Source: Promethearchaeota archaeon
Lineage (GTDB): Archaea; Asgardarchaeota; Hermodarchaeia; Hermodarchaeales; Hermodarchaeaceae
NCBI GenBank assembly: GCA_048939595.1
Contig: JBHLPI010000002.1
Location: 13,058 to 77,057 of the forward strand
DNA: 64,000 nt
Direction: 5' to 3'
Part shown: positions 5,709 to 57,658 of the stretch, in pieces
How the letters are laid out: every line of letters starts with the position of its first letter
Position numbering within the stretch: the stretch's first letter is position 1
Position numbers and translations under genes: made by a program
The notes under the pieces: generated by a model
Database searches by the model: none
What the model saw: the letters and a program-made list of their open reading frames with translations, nothing else
What the model was told of the DNA's origin: nothing

Positions 5709-6686
5709 TTAGATATTTGCGTTGGCAATCATTTCATCGATCATTGATTCGCGTAATCCAATATATTTACGGAGTGGATAGCTGACCCATATCTCAATTT
5801 TTGAGAGGTTGGGCGCTTTCCGTATTACGGGCAATATCTTCTCTGATTCACGAATGTGATTTATAATAAAAACGCAATAGATTATTGGCTCAGTCGCCGC
5901 TACAAAGGAAAACCAGAATTCGAGGGGGAAATGCTTCTTGAAATATTGTACAATTTCTTCTGGTGAACCTTTGCCTTCTGCCCAGTTTGTCCGAACTACA
6001 AAGGCATTGCCACCACCTGCGTTCAGATCCCAGTATATCCGAAAGTGGAGGGCGGCCTTTGACCGTTGGATGTCTGGTTTGTAGTCTTTATCAACAAGAG
6101 TTTCGATGGGTGTTCCCACTTTCCCGTGAAATTCTTGGATGATGTCTCGAACTTTGCGTGGGGATAATGCGCTCTGTTCTGAGATTTTAGAGATGGGCAT
6201 CCGAGCATCCTCTCGAAGGGATTTTAGGACCTTTAGGTGATTGATAGTCATCGGAATTTTTTGCCCACGATCCGCGATGATAGTGTGAATTTCTACGTTT
6301 GTTATGCCAGGTAATTGCCGAAGAAACCCACCTAGTTCAGAGAGCCCCTTTGCCCCGATATATTCGGCGAAAACGAGAATTGATCCATCAGAGAGATATC
6401 CAGCACTAAATACTGAGGGATGGGCACCAATATGGTCAAGATAATCAGGACTAAAATGGGAATCAGCTAGGGTTAATCGGGCAAGAAGCCATTCAGCGCC
6501 CATCATGGCCAAACTGAGATACACGTAATAACGTTGGATCACACCATCATCCTGCATCTTCAGAACTCGTTTCTTGACCGCGTTGACAGTCAGATTAAGG
6601 CGATTCGCTATAATTTGGTAAGTTACTCGGCAATTCGTTGCTAACTCAAGAAGGATGCTTTTATCAATAATATCCAAGGAAGACAC
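5709..6686 (-). CDS. Double winged-helix (Lrp/AsnC-like HTH x2) putative regulator, paralog B.
   Basis: The sequence MSSLDIIDKSILLELATNCRVTYQIIANRLNLTVNAVKKRVLKMQDDGVI is classic Lrp/AsnC N-terminal HTH. A second HTH is LKVLKSLREDARMPISKISEQSALSPRKVRDIIQEF. Confidence 0.6.
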   Translation of the reverse strand: MSSLDIIDKSILLELATNCRVTYQIIANRLNLTVNAVKKRVLKMQDDGVIQRYYVYLSLAMMGAEWLLARLTLADSHFSPDYLDHIGAHPSVFSAGYLSDGSILVFAEYIGAKGLSELGGFLRQLPGITNVEIHTIIADRGQKIPMTINHLKVLKSLREDARMPISKISEQSALSPRKVRDIIQEFHGKVGTPIETLVDKDYKPDIQRSKAALHFRIYWDLNAGGGNAFVVRTNWAEGKGSPEEIVQYFKKHFPLEFWFSFVAATEPIIYCVFIINHIRESEKILPVIRKAPNLSKIEIWVSYPLRKYIGLRESMIDEMIANANI

Positions 6687-39131: not shown

Positions 39132-40487
39132 ATGCCGCAACGAGTTAGTGGTCGATTTCCACGATGGCTGACGGCCATCTTCATGTTTGCCATTTCCTTG
39201 GTCCTTGTCATCTTGACATACTTTATTGATATTGTGGGTGCTCTTTACTATTTTATTAGCATCCTGATTGCCTTTCTGCTCTGGACTTACGTCGATAAAC
39301 AGCCTGTTGAGGGATTTGGTTTTAATCGCATCTCGCGATGGTGGCTTCAACTCATCTTGGGAATTATCCTGGCGAGTACAGTTCTTGGCTTGATTCTCTG
39401 GCTTGAAGTGCTTATTGGTTGGGTTGTTTTAAGCCCTGTCTTCCTTACTGTGCCGTTATGGGCGATTGTAGGGCTTCTTGCATATTATGCGATATGGCAG
39501 GCGCTGGTTGCGGCAGCTGAAGAGTTTGTTAGCCGAGGGTACATTCAGCAAAATCTCGCAACCCAATTACCCATTCCGCTGGCAATTCTAGCTGCCTCAA
39601 TTCTCTTTGCTGCATTACATATTCCAAGTATTGTGTTTCACTTGCTACCTGTACCTCTTGCAGTCATCATGTTCATGAATTTGATTCTTGGGGGAATCAT
39701 GTTGGGCTTGGCGTTTGCCCGAACTGGACATTTATGGTTGCCTATCGGATTGCATTTTGGCTGGAATTACATGCTTTATCATATTGCTGGCTTTGGTGGA
39801 AATGGAATCTTTGATGTGCAAAATCTGGGTCCATCCCTGTTCACTGGTGACCTGATGGGTCCTGAAGCAGGATTGTTTGGTACCCTTGCCTTCTTGTTTT
39901 TAATTACTATTGTCTGGTTAGGAACTCAACCAACTAATGGGCAGCTTATGCGAACTTTTGAACGTAAGCCCTTGCTGATGTTTGCTTTTGGATTCCTCAT
40001 GATGGCCATCCCTGTTGTATTGGGGATGGTCTTTGCGGGACTCTGGCTATTCCTCGTTATCTGGCTTCTTTACGCGATCTTTTTTCTGCAGATTTGGGAA
40101 AATCGAATGCTGTGTAGTCACTGCCCCCATTATGCTTCTGAAGGACGTATCTTACGGTGCCATGCGAATTATGGGCTCTATAAACTCTGGAAGTTTAATC
40201 CTGCGCCGATGAGCCGTTCTGAACAAGCTCAAATGGTAATCGGTGTTACCATTATGATTGGGTTTCCTTTTCCATTGTTGGTGTGGGCTCAGCAATGGTT
40301 CATGCTGAACATCGCCTTATTTGGAGCAATTATCCTCGGGGCTATCTTATTCGGTTGGCTGTGTCTCCGTTGTATCAACTTTTCGTGTCCCTTCAATCGT
40401 GTACCAAAAGCTGAGGTTGATGCGTTTCTGAAAGCACACCCAGAGATACGGAAAGCTTGGGAAGAAATGGGATATAACTTGGATTGA
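39132..40487 (+). CDS. CPBP (CAAX protease / Abi) family intramembrane metalloprotease.
   Basis: Motifs include EEFVSRGYIQ, FAALHIP and HFGWNYMLY. Confidence 0.7.
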   Translation: MPQRVSGRFPRWLTAIFMFAISLVLVILTYFIDIVGALYYFISILIAFLLWTYVDKQPVEGFGFNRISRWWLQLILGIILASTVLGLILWLEVLIGWVVLSPVFLTVPLWAIVGLLAYYAIWQALVAAAEEFVSRGYIQQNLATQLPIPLAILAASILFAALHIPSIVFHLLPVPLAVIMFMNLILGGIMLGLAFARTGHLWLPIGLHFGWNYMLYHIAGFGGNGIFDVQNLGPSLFTGDLMGPEAGLFGTLAFLFLITIVWLGTQPTNGQLMRTFERKPLLMFAFGFLMMAIPVVLGMVFAGLWLFLVIWLLYAIFFLQIWENRMLCSHCPHYASEGRILRCHANYGLYKLWKFNPAPMSRSEQAQMVIGVTIMIGFPFPLLVWAQQWFMLNIALFGAIILGAILFGWLCLRCINFSCPFNRVPKAEVDAFLKAHPEIRKAWEEMGYNLD

Positions 40488-41215: not shown

Positions 41216-41857
41216 TTAGCGAGGAGGTTGGTGGCGAAGAGCGTTTTCGATACGTCGGAGGTCAGCTGGTGTATTGACATTGGTAAACGTGAGTAGTTTC
41301 TTGTCGAACCGTTCGAGAGCAGTTGTTGATAGATAAATAACCCGACCGATTCTTTTGATTAAACATTGCATGCGGTATTCCTTTGCTTCTAAGCATTGAG
41401 TTGCAATATCGCGAGCAATATCGGTTGCATATACAGAGTGAAGCGGTTCAACCCAACCGTTTGGCCAGCGTGGAACTGCAGCATGATGGTTCTCGACCAT
41501 GTTCCATAAGATTTCAAAAAACATGTTATGAATTAGTGGTGAATCGCAGGGAAGGAGTTGAGTATAGGGAGATTTAGCATGCTGAAATGCAGTAAACGCT
41601 CCAACCAATGGACACCGCATTTCATTGTTTTCATCGGTAAGAATTTGATCTTTTGAGATGTATTTGGAAAATAGGTCTTGATCAGCCTTTGAATGGACAA
41701 TAATTATGACTTCGCTGGCATGGGCTTCACAAGCATCTACTACATGGAGAAATAAGGGCTTGCCAGCGATTTGGATAAGAGCCTTAGATGGTTTGAAGCG
41801 ATCACTTCGTCCCCCGGCTAAAATTGCGACAGTAACAGATTCCATCACTTGCGTCAC
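41216..41857 (-). CDS. mobA: Molybdenum cofactor guanylyltransferase (MobA-like NTP transferase).
   Basis: The sequence VAILAGGRSDRFKPSKALIQIAGKPL matches the MobA N-terminal motif. Confidence 0.7.
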   Translation of the reverse strand: MTQVMESVTVAILAGGRSDRFKPSKALIQIAGKPLFLHVVDACEAHASEVIIIVHSKADQDLFSKYISKDQILTDENNEMRCPLVGAFTAFQHAKSPYTQLLPCDSPLIHNMFFEILWNMVENHHAAVPRWPNGWVEPLHSVYATDIARDIATQCLEAKEYRMQCLIKRIGRVIYLSTTALERFDKKLLTFTNVNTPADLRRIENALRHQPPR

Positions 41858-42271
41858 TCTTTGAATCTATCATTCTCTACGCCGCAAAAGCTAGCATTTG
41901 GACTAAAAAGTTATTGATACAGTAAATCAAGAAGAAAAACGTGATTTGCTTTTCGCTAGCTTTGGAGGGTGGTCTCCCCTCCAACAACATCATAATATTC
42001 ACCTATACCCCTATAAAGCGAAGAAAGAGCCCATCATCATCGTTAGATTTCTTTTTAATCGCAAAATTAATAATATTTTGAGAATAAAATTCTAAATAAC
42101 CCATTAAATATCAAAAAGAGCCCAATAAGCCGTTTAAAATGGATTTCATACTGAATTGATTAGAAAATAGAACAATAAAATAGGACTTTGTAACATAAAA
42201 CTCTCCTGAAAATCGCTTTGAGGAACAATCGACATATGCCGATACAGCTTTCGCATTGTTGAGGGTCGTAA

Positions 42272-43669
42272 ATGCCTGTTATCTCCGATGAATCTCTTAA
42301 TGCCCTATCAAACCGAATCCTTTCTCGTTTGGATCCGGAAGATCGAAGTTATGCATTGAGTTTGATACAGAATATTATAATCTTCATTAAACGAATTCAA
42401 GGCCAAAAGATAAGTGAAGAAGAGGAACATTATCCAAGACATCCTCTTTTTTCACATTCTGCCCAAAAAGGAGGACAAGACACCGCCAAAACTCTTCTCT
42501 ACCGGTTACGTCTTGTTGACCAATATCATCTAGACAGAATACAATGCATAATCGATGTAGTTATCAGAAATATCCCATTTGGAGGTAAGAAACCCCTTTC
42601 ATCACGCAAAGCCCAGATACTTTGGCAACTATATCAAAACCCCATGGCCCCCAAATATAAATTAGCTAAGCAAATTGGCACAACACCGCGGACCCTTTCA
42701 AAAGATATTGCCGAATTAGAAAGAGACTATGCATTTCGAATTTTTACTTCAGTTGATTCCCATAAATTCCATCTAATTCAGAAAATCATCGTTTTTGAAA
42801 CAAAATCAATAGCACACACAAGGAAGCTAGCGGATTATGCTACCAATCACCGAGGCTTTCTTCGATCATTTCGACTTGACCAGGATATGCGTAGAGGTAC
42901 ACTGATTTATCGATACCCAAATCAAAAGGAAGGCAACCAATTGTTCGAAGCGCGAGTTGACACGCTTTTAGATGAACTGTTTATTGACGTTAATATCACT
43001 CAGGTGTTTGGAATACATCAATTCATTTCTTTTGAAATGTATAATCCTTTAACTTACGATTTTTCAATTGAGCCAGAAATTGTTTCACAAGTTCCCTTTG
43101 ATTACAGTAAAAGCCATTTGGATACCCTTCCACAGCCCCGTGGGCTTACCTTCACCAAACCTTTTTGGTTTGATCAGGCTGATTTCCTTTTAGCCGATAC
43201 GCTATATTCGTCTGGAACGCTTGCTGACCTCCAATATAAACAACGGCTTCTACGCAGATATGGAATTGAATATTCTACAAAAACGATTTGGAAGAAACAA
43301 CAGCGTCTCCGGAAAGAAAACGTCGGTTTTCCTACTATTGAATTACAGATTCCAGGTTTCGATGAAGATTTGGTTCTAGTTGTATTTTGTACACCAAAAG
43401 CCGCTTCATCAATTCGAGCAATTTCTGTTTTTCTTCCATATGTGATGATAATTACAACGGATTCTGGTTGTTTGCTACGAATTCAGCGACCAGTCCACAC
43501 TGCAACACTAACGGGACAACTTATTCGAAAAATACACAACCAAAGAGGCGTGAGGGATGTGAAACTCCTTCGATATCAAGGCAGACTTCAAACACCCCTA
43601 TTGCCAGATATTGTACATCGATGGAATACAGACAAACAAAAATGGATGGTACAAGAAGAAGACATCTGA
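42272..43669 (+). CDS. Member 1 of an expanded family of about 470-aa proteins with two predicted winged-helix/HTH segments. Function unknown.
   Basis: It is paralogous to 43688-45118 and 48811-50232 (shared EE.YP.H..FSH....G....L.YRL.L.D.Y.I and C-terminal W...KQ.W). The HTHs are LYQNPMAPKYKLAKQIGTTPRTLSKDIAELER and GIEYSTKTIWKKQQRL. Confidence 0.5.
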   Translation: MPVISDESLNALSNRILSRLDPEDRSYALSLIQNIIIFIKRIQGQKISEEEEHYPRHPLFSHSAQKGGQDTAKTLLYRLRLVDQYHLDRIQCIIDVVIRNIPFGGKKPLSSRKAQILWQLYQNPMAPKYKLAKQIGTTPRTLSKDIAELERDYAFRIFTSVDSHKFHLIQKIIVFETKSIAHTRKLADYATNHRGFLRSFRLDQDMRRGTLIYRYPNQKEGNQLFEARVDTLLDELFIDVNITQVFGIHQFISFEMYNPLTYDFSIEPEIVSQVPFDYSKSHLDTLPQPRGLTFTKPFWFDQADFLLADTLYSSGTLADLQYKQRLLRRYGIEYSTKTIWKKQQRLRKENVGFPTIELQIPGFDEDLVLVVFCTPKAASSIRAISVFLPYVMIITTDSGCLLRIQRPVHTATLTGQLIRKIHNQRGVRDVKLLRYQGRLQTPLLPDIVHRWNTDKQKWMVQEEDI

Positions 43670-43687
43670 TAAGAGGAAAAAGAAACG

Positions 43688-45118
43688 ATGACAAGGATAC
43701 AAAACCCTTCTCATTCAGCCAATCTAGAACCTGTCATTGACAAGCAATTCATTGAGAAGCTCATTCATCGATCTGAACCACAAGAAGATCATGAAGATTT
43801 GCGCCTTTTTCTCACAAATGTGCTACTTTTTGTAAAACGTGTTGATGGAGTCGATTTAACGGATGAGGAGAAGGAATATCCATCTCATTCCCAATTTTCT
43901 CATTTGACTTTTCGCAAAGGGCAAAGTACAGCTGAGGGATTGAAATATCGTTTAGACCTCATTGACCGATATAACATCACCAACGCGCAACGCATAATTA
44001 ATATCATAGCCTCAACCGCCGTCTCAACTCCTAAGGAGAAACTAAATTCTCGTCAAATTCGCATAATCGAAGAACTACACAAGAATCCAACCATAGCCCG
44101 ATATGAACTCGCTAAGAAGCTATCAACAACAGCGCAAATTATCCGTAAAGAACTAATGCATCTCCGCCAACAATTTTCATTGGCTGTCATCTACAATTTG
44201 GATTACAGTAAACTCCGATTAGGTTTATTTGAGATTGATTTTCGGACAAAATCACTGGATGCATCTGAGCAACTTGAAAGATTCTACCGGAGAACTCCTC
44301 CTATCTTCTTGCGCCGAATAAATTTTGATCACAACTATCGAGATGGTTTCTTTCACTATCTTGTCCCGGATCAACCGGCGGGTCATCGAATGTTTGCTGA
44401 ACGCCTAAAGTGGTTAGATTCAAATTTTCTCGAAGAATCATCAACATTCAAAATCGAGAGTCTTCGCATTGATATTTCATTTGAGAATTATAATTTAGTA
44501 ACTGGCACGTGGATGCTGGATTCTGACTCGTATTCCGTAGGAGTCTTGGAATTTCTTACAGCTCAGGACAGAGATAGGCTGCCCGCGCGAGAGATGATAT
44601 TTGGGAGACCGATACGATTTGATCGCACGGATTACATTATAGCTTCTACGCCCTACATTTTTGGGGAAAAGCAGCATATCGGGGTCTGCCAAAAGGTGTT
44701 AGAACAACATGGATATTCATTATCTAAAAAGACAATTTGGAATCGCGTAAAGAAGTTGCAACAAGAGGATGTTATGTATCCGTCTGTTTGGTATGATAGT
44801 CCTGAGCTTGAAGAACTTGTCAAGTTTAGTATTACGTGCACTCCTGCAGCCTTTGAACCTATTTATCGACTTCTTTCAATTCTTCCTTATGTCTATTCTG
44901 TCCGAACAGACATTGGATTGACCTTTACATTTCACCGACCGAGTCGATGTGCCCCAATAACAGGTCTATTAGCTGACACCTTTGATAGAATAGATAGTGT
45001 TTCGGATATCAAGATTTTTCGGTACGAGCCTACCTTTAGTCCACAGTTGTTTACGAAGACCGCGGATCGTTGGGATGAAAGCCGACAACGTTGGCTTCTG
45101 AAAAAAGGTGATATCTAA
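43688..45118 (+). CDS. Member 2 of the same double-HTH paralog family.
   Basis: It sits in tandem, 18 nt after member 1, with the same domain layout (LHKNPTIARYELAKKLSTTAQIIRKELMHL and GYSLSKKTIWNRVKKLQ). Confidence 0.5.
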   Translation: MTRIQNPSHSANLEPVIDKQFIEKLIHRSEPQEDHEDLRLFLTNVLLFVKRVDGVDLTDEEKEYPSHSQFSHLTFRKGQSTAEGLKYRLDLIDRYNITNAQRIINIIASTAVSTPKEKLNSRQIRIIEELHKNPTIARYELAKKLSTTAQIIRKELMHLRQQFSLAVIYNLDYSKLRLGLFEIDFRTKSLDASEQLERFYRRTPPIFLRRINFDHNYRDGFFHYLVPDQPAGHRMFAERLKWLDSNFLEESSTFKIESLRIDISFENYNLVTGTWMLDSDSYSVGVLEFLTAQDRDRLPAREMIFGRPIRFDRTDYIIASTPYIFGEKQHIGVCQKVLEQHGYSLSKKTIWNRVKKLQQEDVMYPSVWYDSPELEELVKFSITCTPAAFEPIYRLLSILPYVYSVRTDIGLTFTFHRPSRCAPITGLLADTFDRIDSVSDIKIFRYEPTFSPQLFTKTADRWDESRQRWLLKKGDI

Positions 45119-45128
45119 TCGAAGTGGT

Positions 45129-46037
45129 TCAGGATGATTCCTGCATAATTGAGAAGAAGTGGTCTACCAATTCTTTGGCAATATTGGTATCTATGACTTG
45201 TTGTAAGCCTTGCCATCCACTGCTACTATTGACCTCAGTGACTATCAGTCCTTTTTCAGTTTCTAAAATATCGACACCGGTATATTCGAGTCCAATTGTC
45301 TTAGCACATTTCACTGCAAGTTCTTCTAATTCTTGAGTTAGAGGACAAGGTTGTGGTTTAGCGCCTTGCCGCAGTGCACTTTTCCATGAATCTCCAATAC
45401 GGGTCATAGCCCCAATGGCTCTATTTCCAATTACGAATACACGGATATCCTGATTTCCATGTTCGAGATATTCTTGAATGTACATAACATAACGGTTCGC
45501 TTCTAATGACCGAAAGACACGACGAGCTATTTCATGATCGCTTACCCTAGTCATTCCCACACCACCAGAGCCAAAGAGCGGTTTGACAACAACATCCTTG
45601 TATTGTCGAAAAGCACGAAGTGCATCACGCGTGTATTGCGTTACGGTGGTTCTGGGAACTGGAAGTCCAGCAAATTCAAGCAATCGTAATGTATAGTATT
45701 TGTCCACAGCCTTCTCAATGGCATGGGGACGATTCATAAAAGGAATCCCAAGCCTTTCAAGACAGTGCAGTGTGTCCATTCGTAGAATCACTTGCTCCAA
45801 TGAGCCCCCTGGTACGGCACGTGTGAATACGCCTTGTAGAGTTGTCAGGTCTTCTTTTTTGTACTGAACTCGAGGATGCTTCCCCCCCACACGGACGATC
45901 GTTTCGGTAACATCAAATAGAACACATTCAGTGCCCTTGTGCTGAATCTCGTTTACAACGCGGCTAGTCTCCCATCCTTCTGGTTCGGCTGAAGCAACTC
46001 CCACACGCTGAATCTGTTTAACCATGATTTCACTCAC
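45129..46037 (-). CDS. RimK-type ATP-grasp glutamate ligase (CofF/MptN-like).
   Basis: ATP-grasp motifs include VVKPLFGSGGVGM and EYTGVDILE. It overlaps cofE-like by 4 nt. Confidence 0.65.
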   Translation of the reverse strand: MSEIMVKQIQRVGVASAEPEGWETSRVVNEIQHKGTECVLFDVTETIVRVGGKHPRVQYKKEDLTTLQGVFTRAVPGGSLEQVILRMDTLHCLERLGIPFMNRPHAIEKAVDKYYTLRLLEFAGLPVPRTTVTQYTRDALRAFRQYKDVVVKPLFGSGGVGMTRVSDHEIARRVFRSLEANRYVMYIQEYLEHGNQDIRVFVIGNRAIGAMTRIGDSWKSALRQGAKPQPCPLTQELEELAVKCAKTIGLEYTGVDILETEKGLIVTEVNSSSGWQGLQQVIDTNIAKELVDHFFSIMQESS

Positions 46038-46813
46038 CGTCGAAAGAGATCCCGATCAGGTTCTCGAACTAGCATCTGAGCTGAACCTAGCCCCTTTTCA
46101 AAGTCATATCCACGAATCACAATCACTGCGTTTCCTTCATTGGCTTCGCCCATAAGTAATTCCGCGGCGGAAGCCAGCTCATCAGCCACTGCAACCTTAG
46201 TCGATCGAAGCTCATATCCAAACAAATCTGTGAGTCCTATGTAACTTTTCACAGGAAGAAATCCCGCAACTCCAATGGCGATATTGATGGATCCTTCGCG
46301 GAAAGGTCGCCCATGCGTATCAGAAATGATAATGGCGACCTCAATGTCTAATTGGTTTCTTATGGTCTGGCGAATACGCTCAGCTGAAGCATCGGGATTT
46401 TCTGGGAGAAGGGTTACACAATCAGAGTCGGGTACGTTGGACGAATCGACCCCTGCATTAGCACATACATATCCATGAGTGGTTTCCACAATAAGATGCC
46501 CTTGTTCAGCACGGATGACTCGAGTAGCCTCCTGTAAAATCACTTCAACGAGTTCAGGCCGTTTATCCAGCTTATCCGCTAGCGCCAGGGCTTCTGCAGA
46601 AGGCTTAACATGAGAAAGGTTAACAGTCCGTCCCTCTGCTCGTGAGATGATAGTCTGTGCAATGACTAAGATATCGCCGGAATATAATGCGAAGCCACTG
46701 TCCGTACTAGCTTGACAAATGCGATTACCAACATCATCACTATGATGAATGAGCCCTAACTTAGGTAGAACATGAACGGAATATGACGAGGGAAGAGTTG
46801 TGGGTGAAGGCAT
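46034..46813 (-). CDS. cofE: F420-0:gamma-glutamyl ligase (CofE) family protein.
   Basis: The CofE pattern is GDILVIAQTIISRAEG...GYVCANAGVDSSN...ISDTHGRPFREGSINIAIG. Confidence 0.65.
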   Translation of the reverse strand: MPSPTTLPSSYSVHVLPKLGLIHHSDDVGNRICQASTDSGFALYSGDILVIAQTIISRAEGRTVNLSHVKPSAEALALADKLDKRPELVEVILQEATRVIRAEQGHLIVETTHGYVCANAGVDSSNVPDSDCVTLLPENPDASAERIRQTIRNQLDIEVAIIISDTHGRPFREGSINIAIGVAGFLPVKSYIGLTDLFGYELRSTKVAVADELASAAELLMGEANEGNAVIVIRGYDFEKGLGSAQMLVREPDRDLFRR

Positions 46814-46954
46814 ATTCAGGTCATTCGGGAATTCAGTGTCACCCGCTTAAGAGTGTGCCGACAGCGAAGAAGGAAAGTTATAAAGACGAGAACTACAGCT
46901 GCAATCTTATCAATCGACCAACTTAGTCGGTCAAGCACTTCGAGCGTGGAAGAA

Positions 46955-47563
46955 ATGCCTGAGAAATTCATTAAATACCATATTCAAAAGGACCAACTTG
47001 TCCGCGTCCCTCAAAATTACCTAAACGAGTTCGGAACAGGTGACGTATACCTAGTTGACACCGGACCCATCATTTACTCATGGATTGGGAACAAGTCCAC
47101 ACCTGATGAACAATTCATTGGAGCGGTTACCGCGGTATGGAAAGACCAAGATCGAAAGGGAACCGCAAAACTTGTTACGGTTCATGAAGGAGAAGAACCC
47201 AGAGCGTTTTTAGAATTATTCAGTGATAAGATTGTAGTAACCGAGCAAGATACTGAGGGGATTCTGAAACGTGTCGCACTCAAACAACACGAGTTCAAAC
47301 TTTTCCGTGTACACATCGAAGATGAATTGAAAATGTTTTACGAAGTTGAACGCGATAAAGACTCTCTTGATACAGGTGATGTCTTTCTTTTAGATACATA
47401 CAATAAAATCTACATTTGGCGAGGAAAAGGATCCACCGCCTTCGAACGCTGGGAAGGCATGCGAATAGCTGAAGGATATGATGGCCAACGAGCAGGACAT
47501 CAAGAAGTCATTATCGTTGAAGAGGGAGAAGAACCCAAAGAATTCATCAAACTCCTCAAGTAA
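46955..47563 (+). CDS. Two-domain gelsolin/cofilin-superfamily protein (Asgard 2DGel-like actin regulator).
   Basis: Two gelsolin repeats are present: DVYLVDTGPIIYSWIGNKSTPDEQF and DVFLLDTYNKIYIWRGKGSTAFERWEG. The start is chosen at MPEKF; the ORF track extends 34 codons upstream. Confidence 0.7.
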   Translation: MPEKFIKYHIQKDQLVRVPQNYLNEFGTGDVYLVDTGPIIYSWIGNKSTPDEQFIGAVTAVWKDQDRKGTAKLVTVHEGEEPRAFLELFSDKIVVTEQDTEGILKRVALKQHEFKLFRVHIEDELKMFYEVERDKDSLDTGDVFLLDTYNKIYIWRGKGSTAFERWEGMRIAEGYDGQRAGHQEVIIVEEGEEPKEFIKLLK

Positions 47564-47711
47564 CAATCACACCAAAAACTAGAGAGGTAACCAAGAAGGG
47601 GGAAGAAACCCCAAGTTCGATAATAATACAGTAGGCCCCAGAGCCCCTCTTGGTCAATTTGCCGCTGGACCTTTTTTTCTCAATCCCGAGGAAAGCCAGT
47701 TTAAACCAGTC

Positions 47712-47753
47712 GAACTCTGTCCCAGTGCAGGCGAGAAACACTGGGACAGAGCC
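47712..47753. terminator. Perfect 13-bp hairpin between convergent genes.
   Basis: The hairpin is CTCTGTCCCAGTG-caggcgagaaa-CACTGGGACAGAG. A T7 run at about 47673 precedes it on the plus strand. Confidence 0.4.
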
Positions 47754-47763
47754 CTATGACTGG

Positions 47764-48222
47764 TTAGGTGGCATCATCGAGGACTAAGCTAACGAATTTA
47801 CCCAATCGACCTGTGTGCTGGATGGCATTCTTGAGCCGGGCCTCGTGCGATTCCTTTTTGACGAGAAGATGATTCTCTCGCACGACGACGAGTTCGGTGA
47901 GAAGATCATAGAGCCGACGTAATTCCATTCGATCGACTTGCTGAGAAAGGCGTTCCAGGAGGCGGAACACGTCGTTCATCTCAACCTTCTCAAGCTGGTC
48001 AATAGAGTCCGTGACATTTTGCGACCGCAAAAAGGACCGGGCTAGGCGTAAAACTGGGTCGCTATTGTCATCTGTCCCTGTGGTCACGGCAATTCCCCTC
48101 AGTGTCGCCATACTAAGCACCCCCAATGCTAGCGACGCTTGAGACTTCATGACCAGCCGGCTCAACGCGGACACGCACTCCTGCTGGAGTAGCTTCCACG
48201 GTGATCCGACCACTAAGACCAC
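47764..48222 (-). CDS. Hypothetical protein with a helical C-terminal domain.
   Basis: This 152-aa ORF overlaps the next ORF by 110 nt in another frame. Confidence 0.35.
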   Translation of the reverse strand: MVLVVGSPWKLLQQECVSALSRLVMKSQASLALGVLSMATLRGIAVTTGTDDNSDPVLRLARSFLRSQNVTDSIDQLEKVEMNDVFRLLERLSQQVDRMELRRLYDLLTELVVVRENHLLVKKESHEARLKNAIQHTGRLGKFVSLVLDDAT

Positions 48223-48415
48223 AGGTATCCTTGACTAATTCTAGTAACAAGCTACCAATCGCTCCGATTTCACGAAGGTCTTCACTTCCCGTCTTTGGGG
48301 TAATGTCGATATCGATTGGGTGGGCGTCAATGACGCTTACAATTCGCTGGGTTCCTTCCATTATTTCTGTAGCCACTTTTTTCTCCACCTTTCTAAACAC
48401 AAGTGGGAAAAACAT
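48113..48415 (-). CDS. Hypothetical protein, possibly the N-terminal part of one gene with 47764-48222.
   Basis: This 100-aa ORF ends inside the downstream ORF. A frameshift or overlapping genes would both explain it. Confidence 0.3.
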   Translation of the reverse strand: MFFPLVFRKVEKKVATEIMEGTQRIVSVIDAHPIDIDITPKTGSEDLREIGAIGSLLLELVKDTCGLSGRITVEATPAGVRVRVEPAGHEVSSVASIGGA

Positions 48416-48810
48416 CAGAATGTGAGCCCAATACCGTGTTGATTAATGATCGACTGAGCAAGCCATCTCAGTCAGTCTTTAGTACGGAAACGGATTCGTT
48501 GCGTGCGGTTCCATTGTTCGGTTTTCACATCCGGTGGGTTTTTCCCTTGCGAGTGTGTTTGCTGGAATCTAATACAATCAATGTGCAGCAGCCTTTATAT
48601 GGGGGTTCATGGAGCGGGTAACGGAGCTGACAAAAAAGCCGAATCGGCGAACAGAGAACGGGTAATCGCATGTTGTCACTTAAACTCTGTTGGGTTCACG
48701 TTTTTGTCTAACAGAGAATTAAGTCCGCTTCTAAATTTGTGCTTTTTCGTCAAAAGGAAACTTTTTATGCCATAATCTTTCTTTCTGACGATGGTGTGGC
48801 GCGCGTGGCA

Positions 48811-50232
48811 ATGGCAGCGGATGCATGGGATTTGCTCAACACTCTGAAGGGCAATATTCAGTCCTCGATGCGCCCAAGCGAGGAACTTCTTGAAGTAACA
48901 CAATTACTCGATAATCTCCGAGTATATTCTAAGCGAGTTAAGGGTATACCCCTAACTCATGAAGACTATGAGCTGGTTCCCCACAGATATTTTGACGGAT
49001 TATCAACAGCACCACGCGAGCGGATTTACAATTCTCTTGTCCGTCGTCTAAAAGTAATCTTGCGGTTCAATATCACATCATATGAAAAGGTTTCCCGTGA
49101 TTTACTTCGTGGCTTAGTAACTGATGAAACAGAGAGACTAAATGGAAGAGAGCTTCGACTACTTAGTATACTTTATCAGCGTCCAAAAACTCCTCAGGCA
49201 CAGGTGGCAAAGGAACTCAAAATTAGTATGCCAACTATGAGAAAAGATCTCAAAGTTTTAGAAGAAAAAATTGGGTTACGCTTCGCCAATCTTGTGGATT
49301 GGGGCAGATTCAAGCTAAGACATTATGGTATCTTCTTTGTTACAAAGGGGGTTGATCTTTCTAAACGGGTTCAAGCCATCTTCAACAATGAGATGTCGAC
49401 CTATCTGACTACAGCTGTTTTCGATACTACCTTTCGGCGAGGGTTTGTTGGTTTTCGAATTCCAGATCAAGGAAAACCAGTTCAACTATTCCTTGACCAG
49501 ATACAATTTTTGGATGACGAGTTCTTCGAAATATGTCAGATTCATGAGATTCAGAAGTATTATCAAGCGATATGCTTCGACCATTTTGATTATGAGTCCA
49601 GTACCTGGTTAATTGAAGGCGATGTGTCTTCTATGGGACTACTCAATTTCGTCCGGGAAAATTGGGCTGTTCTACCGAAGCCACGGGGATTATCCAATAC
49701 ATTAGCACGTTCCTTTGATCAGTTGGACTATTATCTTGCTTGTTTTCTCATTGGTGATGGTCGGGCCAATATGAAGAAAATACTTCAACGATTAAGTGCT
49801 AGAGGAATAGAAGCTCCGCGAACAACAGTTTCAACGCGGAAAACTCGCTTAAGTAAGGAAAAGACATTAGAACCATATTTTATTTTTTCAACACCACAAT
49901 TACCTTTCTTTATCACGTTTGCTATTCGGTGTGAACCTCACATCGCTGAGCAGATTGTTGTTGCTGTTGCCCAGATGCCATTGGCTTTTGCTACAATCTC
50001 GAATATCGGGTGCGTTGTGAATGTCCAAGTGCCTTCTCGAAGCTTGGGTCAGATTCTAAATCTTCTTTCATTGACACACCAGGAAGATGATGTTCATGAG
50101 GTTTGGCAGATGCAGCAGTATAAGAACGTTGGATCTGTAGACCCAGCTAATATTGCTCCGAAGTGGAATGGTTCGTATTGGAATTGGTCCGAAGAAGAAT
50201 TCACCATTCCCTCATTTGGGCGCGAATATTAG
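48811..50232 (+). CDS. Member 3 of the double-HTH paralog family.
   Basis: The alignable start is MAADAWDLLNTLKG. Shared motifs are Y.LVPHRYFDGLS and RLK.ILRFNIT. The HTH is LYQRPKTPQAQVAKELKISMPTMRKDLKVLEE. The ORF track begins at 48739. Confidence 0.5.
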   Translation: MAADAWDLLNTLKGNIQSSMRPSEELLEVTQLLDNLRVYSKRVKGIPLTHEDYELVPHRYFDGLSTAPRERIYNSLVRRLKVILRFNITSYEKVSRDLLRGLVTDETERLNGRELRLLSILYQRPKTPQAQVAKELKISMPTMRKDLKVLEEKIGLRFANLVDWGRFKLRHYGIFFVTKGVDLSKRVQAIFNNEMSTYLTTAVFDTTFRRGFVGFRIPDQGKPVQLFLDQIQFLDDEFFEICQIHEIQKYYQAICFDHFDYESSTWLIEGDVSSMGLLNFVRENWAVLPKPRGLSNTLARSFDQLDYYLACFLIGDGRANMKKILQRLSARGIEAPRTTVSTRKTRLSKEKTLEPYFIFSTPQLPFFITFAIRCEPHIAEQIVVAVAQMPLAFATISNIGCVVNVQVPSRSLGQILNLLSLTHQEDDVHEVWQMQQYKNVGSVDPANIAPKWNGSYWNWSEEEFTIPSFGREY

Positions 50233-50289: not shown

Positions 50290-51333
50290 TTGGTGGTGTC
50301 AATAATAAATACACAATTAGCTGTCCGAGAAGGAGATTTCGTTGAAACGACCGAAGGGTTGATTTTTGATGTGAAAGGATTGGTGCATCCTCCAAATAGA
50401 GTGATTGCGTTTTTACGATATTATCCTTCGGCTAAGGGGAAACGAGAACGGGATGGTCAGCGGTATGACAAGGTCTACCATTTGGCAGAGCGATTTGATT
50501 TTCTCAAACAGCACTATTCTCATTATCTATATGATGACCCAGTATTTGGTCGGGAGTTGCAAGGAATTCCAATTGAATCGATTAAGAAAGTCTACCAACC
50601 CAAAGCAAGTCTTGTGAGATTAAAGGAAATTGAAACGCGGGATGCATTGCAGCAAGATGTGGTGACGTTCACAGAGATGATTCAAGAACAGGCTAAGATA
50701 TCAGTAGAAGCTCTTGGGATATCCGGAAGCATCCAAGTCAATTTGCATGGTCCCACCTCTGATATTGATCTTATCGTCTATGGTCGACGAGAAGCTCGAA
50801 CATTGCAACTAGCCCTTAGACGAGCGCATATGGTTCCCGACGAGGGGATTTCAGCATATCAATTGGATACCTATGCTGCTGTGTATAATCTTCGCTGGTG
50901 TGGGACCAGTATTCCGATTGAAACGATGTTGTTGGTTGATGGGCTTAAATCAATGCATGGAATTTTTGGTGGTCACCATTATTTCATCCGAGCAGTTTTA
51001 GATTGGGATGAGGTTCAAGAGCGGTATGGGGATTGCAAGTACCGTCAGGTAGGCCATGCCCGGGCACGGTGTCGAGTGACAGATGATCGCGATGGACTGT
51101 TTACACCTTGCCGATATGAGGTTGATGACGTGACGATTGTGAAAGGAACCAAATCAAAGGATGTTCGTGAGATTGTGAGTTTTCGTGGACGTTTTGCTGA
51201 GCATGTACGACAAGATGAAGAAGTTATTGTTCAGGGTGCTCTCGAATCTGTTCAGAAAGGTAATGAGAAATGGACCCGATTTCTACTTGGAGATACACCG
51301 ACAGATATCTTATTACCCAGTAATTTGCTTTGA
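50290..51333 (+). CDS. Pol-beta-superfamily nucleotidyltransferase, paralog 1.
   Basis: The GS-x9-DxD motif is GISGSIQVNLHGPTSDIDLIVYG. An N-terminal domain of about 150 aa precedes it. Confidence 0.55.
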   Translation: MVVSIINTQLAVREGDFVETTEGLIFDVKGLVHPPNRVIAFLRYYPSAKGKRERDGQRYDKVYHLAERFDFLKQHYSHYLYDDPVFGRELQGIPIESIKKVYQPKASLVRLKEIETRDALQQDVVTFTEMIQEQAKISVEALGISGSIQVNLHGPTSDIDLIVYGRREARTLQLALRRAHMVPDEGISAYQLDTYAAVYNLRWCGTSIPIETMLLVDGLKSMHGIFGGHHYFIRAVLDWDEVQERYGDCKYRQVGHARARCRVTDDRDGLFTPCRYEVDDVTIVKGTKSKDVREIVSFRGRFAEHVRQDEEVIVQGALESVQKGNEKWTRFLLGDTPTDILLPSNLL

Positions 51334-51355: not shown

Positions 51356-52402
51356 GTGGCGCGTCTTCCAAAAGATAAGGATTTTGTAGAAACCAAAGAG
51401 GGACTATTTTTCACAATTGTCGGGTATTTGCACCCTCCTGATGCGTACACGGCGTATTTGAAATATCGTCCAGACCCTAAAGGAAAATGGGAACGAGGAG
51501 ACGTGCGTTACGAACGGATGATGCAAGTCTATAGTGCTGCGGAAGTGCAATCGAGTAGTAATTGGCTATTAGAGAATCACCCGAAGTATATTCAACTCGA
51601 CCCAGTTAGAGGATTTAAACTACCCTTGGTACCGTGGAAGAGTACGGTCGCATACTATTTGCCGGAGGTTCGAATGGCAGAAATCATCCGTAATCCACAA
51701 GATCCATTGGAATCGAAGGCGAAAGCCTTAGTGACTTTGCTTTCTGAGACTAGCGAGGTTGAACCCTCCCATTTTGGAGTTTCAGGTTCAATCTTGTTGG
51801 AAATTCACAATCCCATGTTCTCTGATATTGATTTACTCGTTTATGGTCAAGAAAACGTGCACCGAGTTCGGGATGTGATGGATGAGTTATTTGGCGAAAA
51901 TAAGGTAAAGCCATACTCAGGTGAAGAGATTCAAGCCTGGCAGCTTCGACAAGTCCGAACCCTAGGAATTCCTGCACGATATGCAGAGCAAATAGCATGG
52001 TCACATTGGCAACGAGGGCGGTTTGGAAAAACCTCGTTTTCGATTAATCCCATCCGGATGGACGGAGAAATAATGAACCAATATGGAACAGAAACCTATT
52101 CTCCGGTAGAAACAGTTGAATTCACAGCCACAATCATAGAAGATGAATCGAATTTATTCGTTCCAGCGCGATACTTTGTTGGTGACATTTCAATAGAGGA
52201 AGGAAACACTGAATTGCCTGCACTGACTGAAGTCGTCTCGTTTGAGGGAGTATTTTCTGCGGTTTTTAACAAAGGTGATCGCGTGCGAATTCGTGGCATG
52301 GTTGAAGCAATTCGTGATCAACAAGGAAACATCTTACGAAACCAAGTTATTGTTGGAGCACTATCTGCACAGGGTTGGATTATCCGTCTACCATCATCCT
52401 AG
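51356..52402 (+). CDS. Pol-beta-superfamily nucleotidyltransferase, paralog 2.
   Basis: The motif is GVSGSILLEIHNPMFSDIDLLVYG. It is collinear with paralog 1 (DFVET.EGL.F...G..HPP). Confidence 0.55.
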   Translation: MARLPKDKDFVETKEGLFFTIVGYLHPPDAYTAYLKYRPDPKGKWERGDVRYERMMQVYSAAEVQSSSNWLLENHPKYIQLDPVRGFKLPLVPWKSTVAYYLPEVRMAEIIRNPQDPLESKAKALVTLLSETSEVEPSHFGVSGSILLEIHNPMFSDIDLLVYGQENVHRVRDVMDELFGENKVKPYSGEEIQAWQLRQVRTLGIPARYAEQIAWSHWQRGRFGKTSFSINPIRMDGEIMNQYGTETYSPVETVEFTATIIEDESNLFVPARYFVGDISIEEGNTELPALTEVVSFEGVFSAVFNKGDRVRIRGMVEAIRDQQGNILRNQVIVGALSAQGWIIRLPSS

Positions 52403-52498: not shown

Positions 52499-52897
52499 AT
52501 GTCCAGCTTGGAAGTCGTGTTACTGACTGGTCGAACCCGTCGACAGGGTGTCGGATTAGAGGCGGGGAAACTCAGCGAGATTTACCATGAAGCCACCACT
52601 CAGATTCGACTTGATCCCATTGATTTAGAGAAACTCAAAATTGAATCCGGTGATACTGTGGAAGTCAGTACTGAACATGGCAGTGTCGTGCTTCGAGCAG
52701 AAGCGGCACCCCGAGCTAGCGAAGGCATGGGATTCATTCCGTATGGTCCATGGGCGAATTGTGTCATTAGCGGCGATACAGATAGTACGGGCATGCCGAC
52801 GATGAAAGGATTGAAAGCAAAGGTAACACCTGCCCCCGATAAGCAAGTCCTTACTCTTCAAGAATTACTAGCTGAGATGCGTAACACACCCACCTAG
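52499..52897 (+). CDS. fwdD: Formylmethanofuran dehydrogenase subunit D-like (molybdopterin dinucleotide-binding domain).
   Basis: The sequence LLTGRTRRQG...GDTVEVSTEHGSVVLRA...FIPYGPWANCVISGDTDSTGMPTMKGLKAKV matches the FwdD/FmdD pattern. Confidence 0.65.
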   Translation: MSSLEVVLLTGRTRRQGVGLEAGKLSEIYHEATTQIRLDPIDLEKLKIESGDTVEVSTEHGSVVLRAEAAPRASEGMGFIPYGPWANCVISGDTDSTGMPTMKGLKAKVTPAPDKQVLTLQELLAEMRNTPT

Positions 52898-55278: not shown

Positions 55279-56148
55279 ATGATTGCAATGTCAGAGAAAG
55301 ATTCGATTCGAAAACCATTGATGCCTCCTGTTCTCTTGGCAATTTTATTTTTTATTATTGCCATGGTATTTCGCATCATTGACATCTTTGTGTTACAATT
55401 ACATTTGACGAATTGGAGTATTATAACTTCGAAAGTCATCCCTCTGGTGATACTCCTTCTCTACGTGGGTATTGTCTATCGTACCTTCTCAGTACTTGGT
55501 ATTCATACAAAATATTTGATTATCAATATCATTCTAGGTGTACTAATCTATCTAGCCTACTTCGTTTTACCCTATGCACTTCAGCGTTTCATCGAACTTG
55601 TACTTGGACTAGGACCTAGCCTAAACCTCACCATTGTCCCTGCATTCTTTGTTGCCTATTATATCATCTTTTACATCATTAATTCGTTCACGGAAGAAGG
55701 AATTTTTCGTGGCCTGATGATGCGTTGTTTCATGACCAAGACGAACGGGAATGTTGCCAATATCATTCAAGCCATCTTTTTTGGCTTCTGGCATATCGTG
55801 TGGCCCATCAATGCCTTGCTGAACGGGATGGATACAGTTAGCGCAACCTGGTATGCAACATATTATGTTGCCTCGTCATTTGTCTTCGGAATTGTGACCG
55901 GATACATGTTCCAGAAAACCAGTAGTTTATGGGGCCCAATCGTATTACACACCCTCTGGAATTTCACCCTCTTCATAGTCACTCTGACTTATGTTATTCC
56001 TCCATCGGGTTTCCTCGACTTGCTAGTTTACATAACAACTTTCGGCACTGAAGTGGTCGGCGCCTTGATAGCCATCTTTATCATCCGTTTCATTAGTCAT
56101 TACCAACAACTCCCTGAACTAACGGCATGGAATGCCCCACTTCCCTGA
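55279..56148 (+). CDS. CPBP (CAAX/Abi) intramembrane metalloprotease.
   Basis: Motifs include EEGIFRGLMM, FGFWHIVW and HTLWNF. Confidence 0.7.
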   Translation: MIAMSEKDSIRKPLMPPVLLAILFFIIAMVFRIIDIFVLQLHLTNWSIITSKVIPLVILLLYVGIVYRTFSVLGIHTKYLIINIILGVLIYLAYFVLPYALQRFIELVLGLGPSLNLTIVPAFFVAYYIIFYIINSFTEEGIFRGLMMRCFMTKTNGNVANIIQAIFFGFWHIVWPINALLNGMDTVSATWYATYYVASSFVFGIVTGYMFQKTSSLWGPIVLHTLWNFTLFIVTLTYVIPPSGFLDLLVYITTFGTEVVGALIAIFIIRFISHYQQLPELTAWNAPLP

Positions 56149-56260
56149 TCCCCAATTTCATATACACTCCCTATGAATCGTAGTTTGGGCGAACCGCTTA
56201 AATGACAGAACTGCCCTTTAGACCTACACTCTATGCTAAATGCTATATGAGGCTCATACC

Positions 56261-57658
56261 ATGACAACCAAAGATACTGATGCAATCCTCGCAACTCCTC
56301 GGTCGCGGATTACCAAACATGTCATCTGCCCATTTTGCGGCTGTCTTTGCGATGACATTGAGGTAGCTGTAACCCTAACGGGTCCGTTACCCCGGGTTCC
56401 CGAGGGAACGATTGTGGAGGCGTTAAATGCCTGCCGGATAGGACACACCAAATTCCTTAAGGTCCGAGATGAGTACCGAATTTACAAACCAGAACTCCGT
56501 TCAGGCCCTAACAAATCTGAAGTGAAACAGGTATCTTTGGAAGAAGCAGTGAAAGCGGCCGCAAAAATTCTTGTGGAAGCGAAACGCCCAGTAATTTACG
56601 GATTAGCCAGTACTTCAAATGAAGCTAACGCCAAGGCATTAGAACTCGCGGAGGTAACCGGAGCCATTGTGGATAATACTTCTTCAGTGTGTCATGGTCC
56701 AGGTATTGAAGCAGTTCAACGAGTTGGGATCGGCACCTGCACTTTAGGTAAAATCAAGAACTACTCGGACCTTATTATCTACTGGGGCTGTAACCCAGTT
56801 GCAGCACATCCACGGCATACTCGACGGTACTCTCAATTCATTGAAGGCCTCTTTCAACAAGTCGAAGATCGAAAAGTTTATCATATCGATGTTCGCCCCA
56901 CACGTTTCACGGATCAAGTGACCAATTCACTTATTATAGAACCCAATAAGGACTATGAGCTAATTCAAGCAGTCCGAGCGCTTTTACGAGGCCGTGAATT
57001 ACAGGCCGCGGAGGTCGCTGGGATTCCAATGCGTCAAATCAGGGAATTTGCGAATGACTTGAAGAATGCGAAATTCACCACAATTTTCTTCGGTTTAGGT
57101 CTCACGCAAACTCATGGAAAGGACCACAATGTTTCAGCGGCGATTGATTTGACAGCAGATTTGAATCACCATACGAAGGCAGTAATCATGCCGCTTCGAG
57201 GTCACTTCAACGTGACTGGTTCCAATCATGTCTCCACATGGACATATGGTTATCCATTTTCGGTCAGCTTAGAACAAGGTGCACCGTATTACATGCCTGG
57301 GGAAACCAGTGCGGTAGATGTGCTGGTTCGAGGGGAAGCTGATGCGTTCTTTGCTATTGCAGCTGATCCCGCGGCATCATTTCCTATGCCAGCTGTAAAG
57401 GCTATGATGAATATTCCAGTCATTATCTTGGATCCCAAGCGCTGTGCAACTACTGAAATTTCCGATGTTGTCTTACCTTCTGCATATGTGGGAATTGAAG
57501 CAGATGGAGTCCAAACAGCCTATCGAATGGACGGCATTCCCTTACAGCTTGACAAAATTGTTGATGCCCCCGCTGGTGTGAAGAGTGATACCCAGATTCT
57601 CGATATGTTAGTACGGGAAGTCTGTAAGCTAAAAAAGATCAAACGATACCATCAATAA
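56261..57658 (+). CDS. fwdB: Formylmethanofuran dehydrogenase subunit B-like molybdopterin/tungstopterin oxidoreductase.
   Basis: The N-terminal motif HVICPFCGCLCDDIEV is the FwdB-type Cys cluster. The rest has the molybdopterin oxidoreductase fold. The ORF track starts at 56240. Confidence 0.65.
   Translation: MTTKDTDAILATPRSRITKHVICPFCGCLCDDIEVAVTLTGPLPRVPEGTIVEALNACRIGHTKFLKVRDEYRIYKPELRSGPNKSEVKQVSLEEAVKAAAKILVEAKRPVIYGLASTSNEANAKALELAEVTGAIVDNTSSVCHGPGIEAVQRVGIGTCTLGKIKNYSDLIIYWGCNPVAAHPRHTRRYSQFIEGLFQQVEDRKVYHIDVRPTRFTDQVTNSLIIEPNKDYELIQAVRALLRGRELQAAEVAGIPMRQIREFANDLKNAKFTTIFFGLGLTQTHGKDHNVSAAIDLTADLNHHTKAVIMPLRGHFNVTGSNHVSTWTYGYPFSVSLEQGAPYYMPGETSAVDVLVRGEADAFFAIAADPAASFPMPAVKAMMNIPVIILDPKRCATTEISDVVLPSAYVGIEADGVQTAYRMDGIPLQLDKIVDAPAGVKSDTQILDMLVREVCKLKKIKRYHQ

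Follow-up and report, generated by a model that had tools for sequence, protein, structure and literature searches.

Introduction

The closest described relatives of the proteins considered here are found in and around the Lrp/AsnC superfamily. Classical Lrp/AsnC regulators (LrpA of P. furiosus, PDB entry 1i1g; Pyrococcus FL11, 1ri7 and 2e1c; Escherichia coli Lrp, 2gqq, and AsnC, 2cg4) are single modules of about 150 amino acids, with one helix-turn-helix (HTH) and one RAM domain, which associate as symmetric homodimers. Two Lrp-like modules are combined in siroheme decarboxylase (NirDL of Hydrogenobacter thermophilus, 4ch7 and 4czc; AhbA/AhbB, 4czd and 4un1), an enzyme of haem and haem d1 synthesis. 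A further point of comparison is given by the PRD-containing Mga/AtxA/MafR proteins (3sqn, 23vj), of about 480 amino acids, in which two N-terminal HTHs are followed by the PRD and an EIIB-like domain. To our knowledge, transcription regulation in the Asgard archaea is almost unstudied. Here we describe five genes from a 64,000-nucleotide stretch of DNA of a Promethearchaeota archaeon (assembly GCA_048939595.1, contig JBHLPI010000002.1, positions 13,058 to 77,057 of the forward strand), called the window below: three genes of about 470 amino acids, named A, B and C, and two of 325 amino acids, named D and E. An earlier note, made from the sequence alone, had brought them together as an expanded family of double-HTH proteins. 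Our analysis indicates that A, B and C are best described as an unnamed, fused branch of the Lrp/AsnC superfamily, seen so far in Asgard archaea only, and points to D and E as a second double-Lrp family.

Results

A, B and C are homologous from end to end

All five open reading frames (ORFs) were confirmed at the coordinates given by the earlier note; the start sites of C and D are refined below.

42272-43669, plus strand: paralog A, 465 amino acids; it opens the A-B tandem, forms its own orthogroup in other genomes and has a GAGG Shine-Dalgarno sequence before its ATG.
43688-45118, plus strand: paralog B, 476 amino acids; the modelled member, and an exact match to a hypothetical protein of a 'Promethearchaeota archaeon' metagenome-assembled genome.
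48805-50232, plus strand: paralog C, 475 amino acids from its most likely start, GTG 48805 (473 amino acids from ATG 48811); the most divergent of the trio.
3353-4330, plus strand: paralog D, 325 amino acids (probably 322 from ATG 3362); a double Lrp/AsnC single chain of the second family.
5709-6686, minus strand: paralog E, 325 amino acids, 41% identical to D.

The proposed paralogy of A, B and C was borne out by BLASTP alignments running end to end, with 30% identity over 466 amino acids between A and B (E 9e-75), 26% between B and C (E 3e-50) and 25% between A and C (E 3e-44). D and E were also aligned over their full length (E 1e-89). A and B do form the tandem pair that had been noticed, 18 bp apart on the same strand, with a GAGG Shine-Dalgarno sequence upstream of B. 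No further relatives beyond these five were detected in the window, either by tblastn or with module hidden Markov models (HMMs) applied to all window ORFs of 70 amino acids or more.

The start of C was deduced from an alignment of 10 orthologous upstream regions together with the window sequence. GTG 48805, two codons upstream of ATG 48811, is most likely the true start, because this codon is kept across the orthologous loci (as TTG in L001), the ortholog in L011 has no ATG at all, and a GGTG Shine-Dalgarno sequence lies 9 nt upstream. D probably starts at ATG 3362, since the database protein has 322 amino acids.

Predicted architecture of the A/B/C chain

B was modelled with AlphaFold2 on the basis of an alignment of 36 family sequences (pLDDT 86, pTM 0.78), and the model displayed a clear HTH, RAM, HTH, RAM pattern of secondary structure. 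A helical N-terminal domain (residues 19-108) is followed in this model by a winged HTH (121-171), a beta-alpha-beta-beta-alpha-beta unit (178-263) and a linker, after which come an HTH with an insertion (313-368), a second beta-alpha-beta-beta-alpha-beta unit (374-450) and a short RWDxSxQRW tail. The predicted segments lie on the DNA as follows.

43688-44023, plus strand: N-terminal helical domain of B in the model, amino acids 1-112; the subfamily motif EEKEYPSHSQFSH lies in a low-confidence loop.
44024-44482, plus strand: module 1 of B in the model, with winged HTH1 (amino acids 113-172) and RAM1 (173-265, beta-alpha-beta-beta-alpha-beta).
44618-45043, plus strand: module 2 of B in the model, with winged HTH2 (amino acids 311-369, insertion between helices 1 and 2) and RAM2 (370-452).
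45044-45115, plus strand: C-terminal tail of B, with the hallmark R-W-D-x-S-x-Q-R-W and the tryptophans W462 and W469.

Both winged-helix segments that had been predicted for each protein are present in the model. The layout first suggested, an HTH, a spacer, a second HTH and an alpha/beta domain, holds for the two HTHs and the RAM-like domains and requires two changes: the secondary structure of the model identifies the 'spacer' as a RAM domain, and an N-terminal domain precedes HTH1.

The top structural match, for the B model and for a model of the 325-amino-acid type alike, was the fused NirDL, over 227-259 residues; Foldseek with the B model gave the same ranking (NirDL E 1.3e-7; Lrp/AsnC probability 1.00). 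Winged HTH and beta-alpha-beta-beta-alpha-beta RAM of the B model are superposable on solved Lrp/AsnC members, and an Lrp-type fold can be assigned to A, B and C from this model with high confidence. In contrast to the classical subunit of about 150 amino acids, with its one HTH and one RAM in a symmetric dimer, two modules are found per chain. Each of A to E thus differs from known Lrp/AsnC proteins in that two diverged modules are fused into an obligatorily asymmetric pseudo-dimer, and A, B and C add an N-terminal helical domain of about 110 amino acids and a conserved two-Trp tail. What the model shows for the A/B/C chain is therefore a predicted covalently fused pseudo-dimer of two Lrp/AsnC modules carrying these two additions. 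The duplication is visible in the fold only, as hhalign between modules 1 and 2 of B gave no signal of internal duplication by sequence.

The N-terminal domain of B had no Pfam match, its hhalign comparison with all other modules was negative, and its HMM matched only A, B and C within the window. On these searches the domain is specific to the family, with no detectable relatives outside A, B, C and their homologs.

Comparison with described families

Pfam and NCBIfam scans recognized in A, B and C one weak HTH at about amino acids 110-160, with a weak Lrp HTH match at amino acids 302-356 of C, and no family in either collection claimed any of the three; the earlier note had likewise found no characterized family for them. 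D and E passed the threshold of the AsnC-type HTH models PF13404/PF13412, at 73.6 and 62.5 bits and with two stretches each. No match to the RAM domain PF01037 (AsnC_trans_reg) was obtained at E <= 1 in any of the five proteins. Judged by sequence models, A, B and C fall outside Lrp/AsnC; they also fall outside siroheme decarboxylase in every non-structural respect.

The likeness to siroheme decarboxylase lies in the two Lrp-like modules and the RAM-RAM barrel; that enzyme has neither the N-terminal helical domain nor the Trp tail. Its family models matched none of A, B and C, and the scores of the other two proteins were far from the cut-offs: E reached 14.8 bits with the AhbB model, for which 125 are required, and D and E reached 11.9-13.3 bits with PF22451, for which 27 are required.

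Mga/AtxA/MafR proteins, which are of similar length, were the best PDB sequence match of the A/B/C profile. This match was confined to HTH1 (profile positions 121-179, about 59 residues, E 2e-4), NCBIfam scores were 16-19 bits against cut-offs of 130-450, and, in contrast to the PRD and EIIB-like domains of Mga, the remainder of the B model is Lrp-like. Membership in MarR, TrmB or Mga was rejected because all the HTH matches (MarR, HTH_11, Mga and AsnC types, in Pfam, NCBIfam and PDB searches) were below threshold. We found no description of the A/B/C family in the literature.

D and E as a second family

D and E had been presented as related paralogs of A, B and C. The architecture does echo, and NirDL is the top match of both, but no significant similarity was found by BLASTP between the two groups, the likeness being at the level of the HTH (E 0.11). 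Whole-profile hhalign aligned just 47 HTH columns. A deeper link appeared only after the alignments had been cut into modules: module 1 of B matched module 2 of D at E 8e-9 and module 1 of D at E 1e-5, the aligned regions reaching into the RAM over 89 columns (B module 1 with D module 1) and 127 columns. HMM cross-matches inside the window agreed with this module-level link. Since the hhalign and HMM links are limited to single modules and there is no BLASTP match, we regard A/B/C and D/E as two distinct families of the Lrp/AsnC superfamily, D/E being a second double-Lrp family, independently fused, with the fused architecture common to both.

The D profile, the only one for which this was seen, aligned to full-length Lrp chains in the PDB over amino acids 1-130, RAM included, at E 6e-15. 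By this match the first D/E module is a conventional Lrp/AsnC module, and D and E can be classified within Lrp/AsnC, of which they are a fused variant. The earlier note had held that placement within standard Lrp with a known ligand would speak against its proposal; no such placement was found for A, B and C, and for D and E it goes as far as this first module, no known ligand being attached. In another genome, the orthologs of D and E are immediately adjacent tandem genes, flanked by the same acyl-CoA dehydrogenase and C25-peptidase genes.

Motifs and conserved residues

A three-way alignment shows the motifs said to be shared by the trio, most clearly in A and B. Both of these match EE.YP.H..FSH exactly, and C has a degenerate form (EDYELVPHRYFDG). 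For RL.LID.Y.I the match is exact in B only (RLDLIDRYNI, compared with RLRLVDQYHL in A and RLKVILRFNI in C), and the C-terminal W..(K/R)Q.W is represented by RWNTDKQKW (A), RWDESRQRW (B) and KWNGSYWNW (C). Across an 86-sequence alignment of the deep family, the YP.H motif was confined to the A/B subfamily. In that alignment the two C-terminal Trp are 98-99% conserved, together with R88/L89; the conserved residues are otherwise few and mostly structural, mainly L, P, G, F and W. The tail motif by itself retrieved 17 related loci. The only His conserved at 90% or more in the 36-sequence alignment is H67, in the N-terminal domain; no His reached 75% in the 86-sequence alignment, and neither RAM has a conserved one.

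Distribution, gene order and age of the family

An exhaustive profile search among 1.84 billion representatives recovered 189 proteins at E <= 1e-3, 38 of them at E <= 1e-30; the weakest matches are proteins of 320-376 amino acids with AsnC-type HTHs. The labelled homologs from the word-indexed search (n=37) were all from Asgard archaea (Hermod-, Thor- and Hodarchaeota) except for one partial 'Bathyarchaeota' protein. Members of the distant clades, where labelled, belong to Odinarchaeota, Asgardarchaeia or Thorarchaeota, and two of these clades bear the JGI name 'DNA-binding Lrp family transcriptional regulator'.

The genes around A, B and C follow a conserved order: MobA-like (minus strand), A, B, RimK/MptN-like (minus), CofE (minus), gelsolin, two small genes (minus), C, two nucleotidyltransferase-like paralogs, FwdD-like and H+-PPase. 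About 17 Hermodarchaeota-type loci keep this order, including those with orthologs no more than 36-38% identical to B, and A, B and C are all present in every Hermod-type locus that is long enough. One more divergent genome has a single gene at the position of the A-B tandem, and the distant family members stand in unrelated gene contexts, without RimK, CofE or gelsolin neighbours. From one genome to another, the orthologs of A, B and C share 45-76% identity, compared with 22-36% for paralogs, and in a neighbour-joining tree A, B, C and a fourth type stand apart from one another and from deeper clades. At least five paralog types of the family occur per genome; one genome contains both a B ortholog and a deeper-clade member. 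The fourth type was located in two related loci.

L018 7959-9374 (JAEOTO010000033.1): fourth paralog type, 471 amino acids, convergent to the H+-PPase gene.
L024 7315-8685 (JABXGY010000126.1): fourth paralog type, in the same convergent position.

It is 33-35% identical to B and carries the RWDxSxQRW tail. Beside the H+-PPase gene of the window it is absent, and a 289-amino-acid Rce1-like gene (55279-56148) is found there instead. On a distantly related metagenomic contig (L025 8856-9968), a 370-amino-acid protein is encoded directly upstream of a 474-amino-acid family member. It lacks the N-terminal domain and can be aligned with the core of the family over 264 columns (hhalign E 1e-4), and the two form a pair of adjacent double-Lrp genes in an unrelated gene context. 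Adjacent paralog pairs thus recur independently, as A-B, as D-E and as this pair.

Because they fall into separate orthogroups, keep their gene order and are far closer to their orthologs (45-76%) than to one another (22-36%), A, B and C are, by these comparisons, old paralogs. The lineage-specific expansion suggested earlier is real at the level of the phylum, with Asgard labels wherever a label exists, and does not stand as a local burst within 50 kb.

Conserved non-coding DNA beside A and C

Both long intergenic regions of the block keep their length (about 400-490 bp) and contain invariant blocks, in genomes where the flanking proteins are 45-75% identical. Upstream of C the following features were recorded.

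48416-48810: C upstream region, 395 bp from the small minus-strand gene to C; 69% identity per column in 10 genomes.
48453-48471: hairpin-like CTGAGCAAGCCA..CTCAG, an invariant block.
Within 48539-48571: GCGAGTGTGTTTGCTGGAATC, an invariant block.
48590-48597: TATA-like AGCCTTTA, an invariant block.
48620-48640: GGAGCnGACAAAAAAGCC, an invariant block.
48747-48791, plus strand: inverted repeat TCGTCAAAAGGAAA-N17-TTTCTTTCTGACGA, bracketing the TATA-like box TTTTTATG; the Shine-Dalgarno sequence and GTG start of C come directly after.

The arms of the inverted repeat are 14 nt long and 86% complementary, with a 17-nt spacer that is constant in length and variable in sequence; the repeat is exact in 15 loci. 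Centre to centre the arms are 31 bp apart, about three helical turns. A classical Lrp operator covers about 13-15 bp, which is about the size of one arm, and the repeat is a plausible candidate for an auto-operator of C. As an RNA hairpin it folded no better than shuffled sequence (z = 0.11, single-sequence folding), and RNAalifold upstream of C found a 13-bp hairpin essentially without covariation. Operator arrays, long 5' leaders or an as yet unknown small RNA may lie within this 395-bp region.

The second region separates A from the divergent MobA-like gene.

41858-42271: A upstream region, 414 bp here and 392-490 bp among the loci.
41971-41982, plus strand: invariant 12-mer GGTCTCCCCTCC, found without change in 17 loci and only once in the window.
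42010-42017, 42074-42088, 42161-42183 and 42194-42205: TATA-like and A/T-rich blocks conserved in the alignment.

Rfam (gathering thresholds for the whole window, E-value thresholds for 48350-48860) and ARAGORN on the whole window gave nothing in the conserved intergenic regions.

Neighbouring genes

The neighbours named in the earlier note, that is gelsolin, CofE, a RimK/MptN-like ligase and a pair resembling NTP_transf_2 proteins, were all confirmed. The gelsolin-repeat gene (46853-47563) matches Pfam Gelsolin in two stretches, and CofE scores above the TIGR01916 cut-off. The block is rich in one-carbon (C1)/cofactor genes (41216-41857, 45129-46813, 52499-52897 and 56240-57658): they encode a MobA-like guanylyltransferase, the MptN-like RimK ligase, CofE, a molybdopterin oxidoreductase and an FwdD-like protein of the double-psi barrel type, and the gelsolin-repeat gene is embedded among them. 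We gave less weight to an operon-type functional link of the family to RimK, CofE or gelsolin, because the distant family members lack these neighbours.

Two small genes on the minus strand lie between gelsolin and C (47764-48222 and 48113-48415). They have no Pfam or NCBIfam match. Their identity across Hermod-type genomes, 74-91%, exceeds that of A, B and C; the overlap of their ORFs is probably artificial, because gene calls in related loci suggest products of about 115 and 87 amino acids. Directly downstream of C, two tandem paralogs of about 347 amino acids (50290-51333 and 51356-52402, both plus strand) adjoin it, a position that the pair keeps in all related loci (47-95% identity). Pfam gives a weak NTP_transf_2 match (22 bits) for the first and none for the second, and NCBIfam matches neither. 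Two Rce1-like CAAX-protease genes, 39132-40487 (451 amino acids) and 55279-56148 (289 amino acids), flank the conserved block and lie within 16 kb of each other.

Discussion

A, B and C probably act as DNA-binding transcription regulators, a function that we favour with some reserve. It is preferred over an enzymatic one because both HTHs are basic (mean net charge across the family +3.3 for HTH1 and +3.4 for HTH2, RAM2 and the linker being acidic), because the recognition helix of HTH2 looks AsnC-like (SKKTIWNRVKKL in B and TTVSTRKTRL in C, which we take to fit the AsnC-type pattern S-x-x-T-(V/I)-x-x-R-(V/I)-x-x-L), because no RAM His is conserved and because the proteins evolve fast (45-55% identity, compared with 70-80% for neighbouring enzymes in the same genome pairs). 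The unrelated contexts of distant members and the presence of at least five paralog types, which is typical of transcription-factor families, argue in the same direction.

According to this proposal, the two RAM domains of one chain would be packed together in the way known from NirDL and from Lrp dimers, and would thereby place two non-identical, basic AsnC-type HTHs on one face. Because two diverged HTHs are fused in one pseudo-dimer, a single chain might read an asymmetric operator of about 14 bp, and chains joined in pairs or in larger complexes, whether of one kind or mixed from A, B and C, might occupy adjacent sites. A small ligand would be sensed by the RAM-RAM unit. As a target, the promoter of C itself would be the best candidate; the inverted repeat there brackets a TATA-like box, and the geometry of the repeat would suit repression through occlusion of TBP/TFB or RNA polymerase. 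Heteromeric assemblies are known for Lrp-type proteins, NirDL/NirGH and AhbA/B. A, B and C possibly form them too, since adjacent paralog pairs recur and the three genes co-occur in the sufficiently long Hermod-type loci.

Several observations weigh against the picture drawn so far. With their HTHs, A, B and C narrowly miss the Pfam gathering thresholds (HTH_24, 19.8-19.9 against 21.9 bits; HTH_AsnC-type, 14.8 against 27; HTH_11, 24.9 against 25). Most of the 189 profile hits bear no organism label and the labelled ones include the partial Bathyarchaeota protein, so that the restriction to Asgard archaea describes the labelled subset. The best structural match, NirDL, is an enzyme and not a regulator. 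Regarding the DNA, the inverted repeat could equally consist of a TFB-recognition element (BRE), TATA, initiator and Shine-Dalgarno elements or belong to an RNA leader, and the window shows no enrichment of its half-site TCGTCAAAAGGAAA (16 matches, 10.6 expected). The upstream regions of A and C share no conserved motif; an operator common to both genes is for this reason unsupported.

In a rival reading, A, B and C would be subunits of an enzyme or of a cofactor-handling complex with the mode of action of siroheme decarboxylase (NirDL/NirGH, AhbA/AhbB); Lrp-fold paralogs with side-by-side genes would bind a tetrapyrrole or another cofactor in the cavity of a RAM-RAM barrel, and their HTHs would be relics. 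We consider this improbable. A, B and C match neither the AhbA/B models of NCBIfam nor the NirDL-like HTH model of Pfam. The 2014 paper on the structure of NirDL is said to report two essential His residues. In siroheme decarboxylase, a His on a RAM beta-strand binds the substrate within the RAM-RAM barrel (PMC4835899). No conserved His was found there in A, B and C, the location being taken from PMC4835899 without a residue-by-residue mapping of NirDL. No ahb or nir haem genes are present in the window, and none were seen among the genes scanned around the five paralogs or in the listed gene calls of related loci. The neighbours of distant members are also quite different, the HTHs have stayed basic, and the flanking enzymes evolve more slowly.

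Proteins with an Lrp fold may also have an architectural role. Some Lrp-type proteins form DNA-wrapping octamers or hexadecamers, and several co-conserved paralogs could build a heteromeric ring, so that A, B and C might be nucleoid-associated proteins which wrap DNA in rings or filaments with low specificity, like some Lrp members. This is quite improbable in our view: fast divergence and many paralog types fit specific regulators better than core chromatin proteins, and the family is small in sequence space (189 of 1.84 billion representatives). Finally, that the five genes share a superficial similarity, a generic HTH in a 'family' created by composition, is hardly credible, for in spite of the HTH-level BLASTP (E 0.11) and 47-column whole-profile links between the families, it is already refuted within A/B/C and within D/E by overwhelmingly significant full-length alignments, and between them both models match the same fused structure over 227-259 residues and the module profiles reach the RAM.

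Starting again from a regulatory function for A, B and C, a much bolder version can be formulated, which we regard as unlikely. A, B, C and the fourth type would constitute an obligate hetero-oligomeric ring of asymmetric single-chain Lrp pseudo-dimers, specific to Asgard archaea, which would sense a C1/cofactor metabolite (related to F420, tetrahydromethanopterin (H4MPT) or pterin) and control the surrounding block, gelsolin gene included, through sites such as the repeat at 48747-48791 and GGTCTCCCCTCC. The N-terminal domain and the Trp tail would then serve as elements of heteromerization or ligand gating without counterpart in known Lrp proteins.

Taken as a whole, the finding is a solid gain in annotation and changes no major picture. 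Two unnamed families of putative regulators are defined, Asgard-labelled wherever a label exists, and they provide two more cases of a NirDL-type fused Lrp architecture that would have arisen outside haem synthesis. The trio lies in a block whose order is conserved in about 17 genomes and which includes an Asgard gelsolin gene, with invariant non-coding elements beside the paralogs. For the family itself, the conversion of a symmetric Lrp dimer into one asymmetric chain should permit the recognition of non-palindromic sites and the formation of mixed oligomers.

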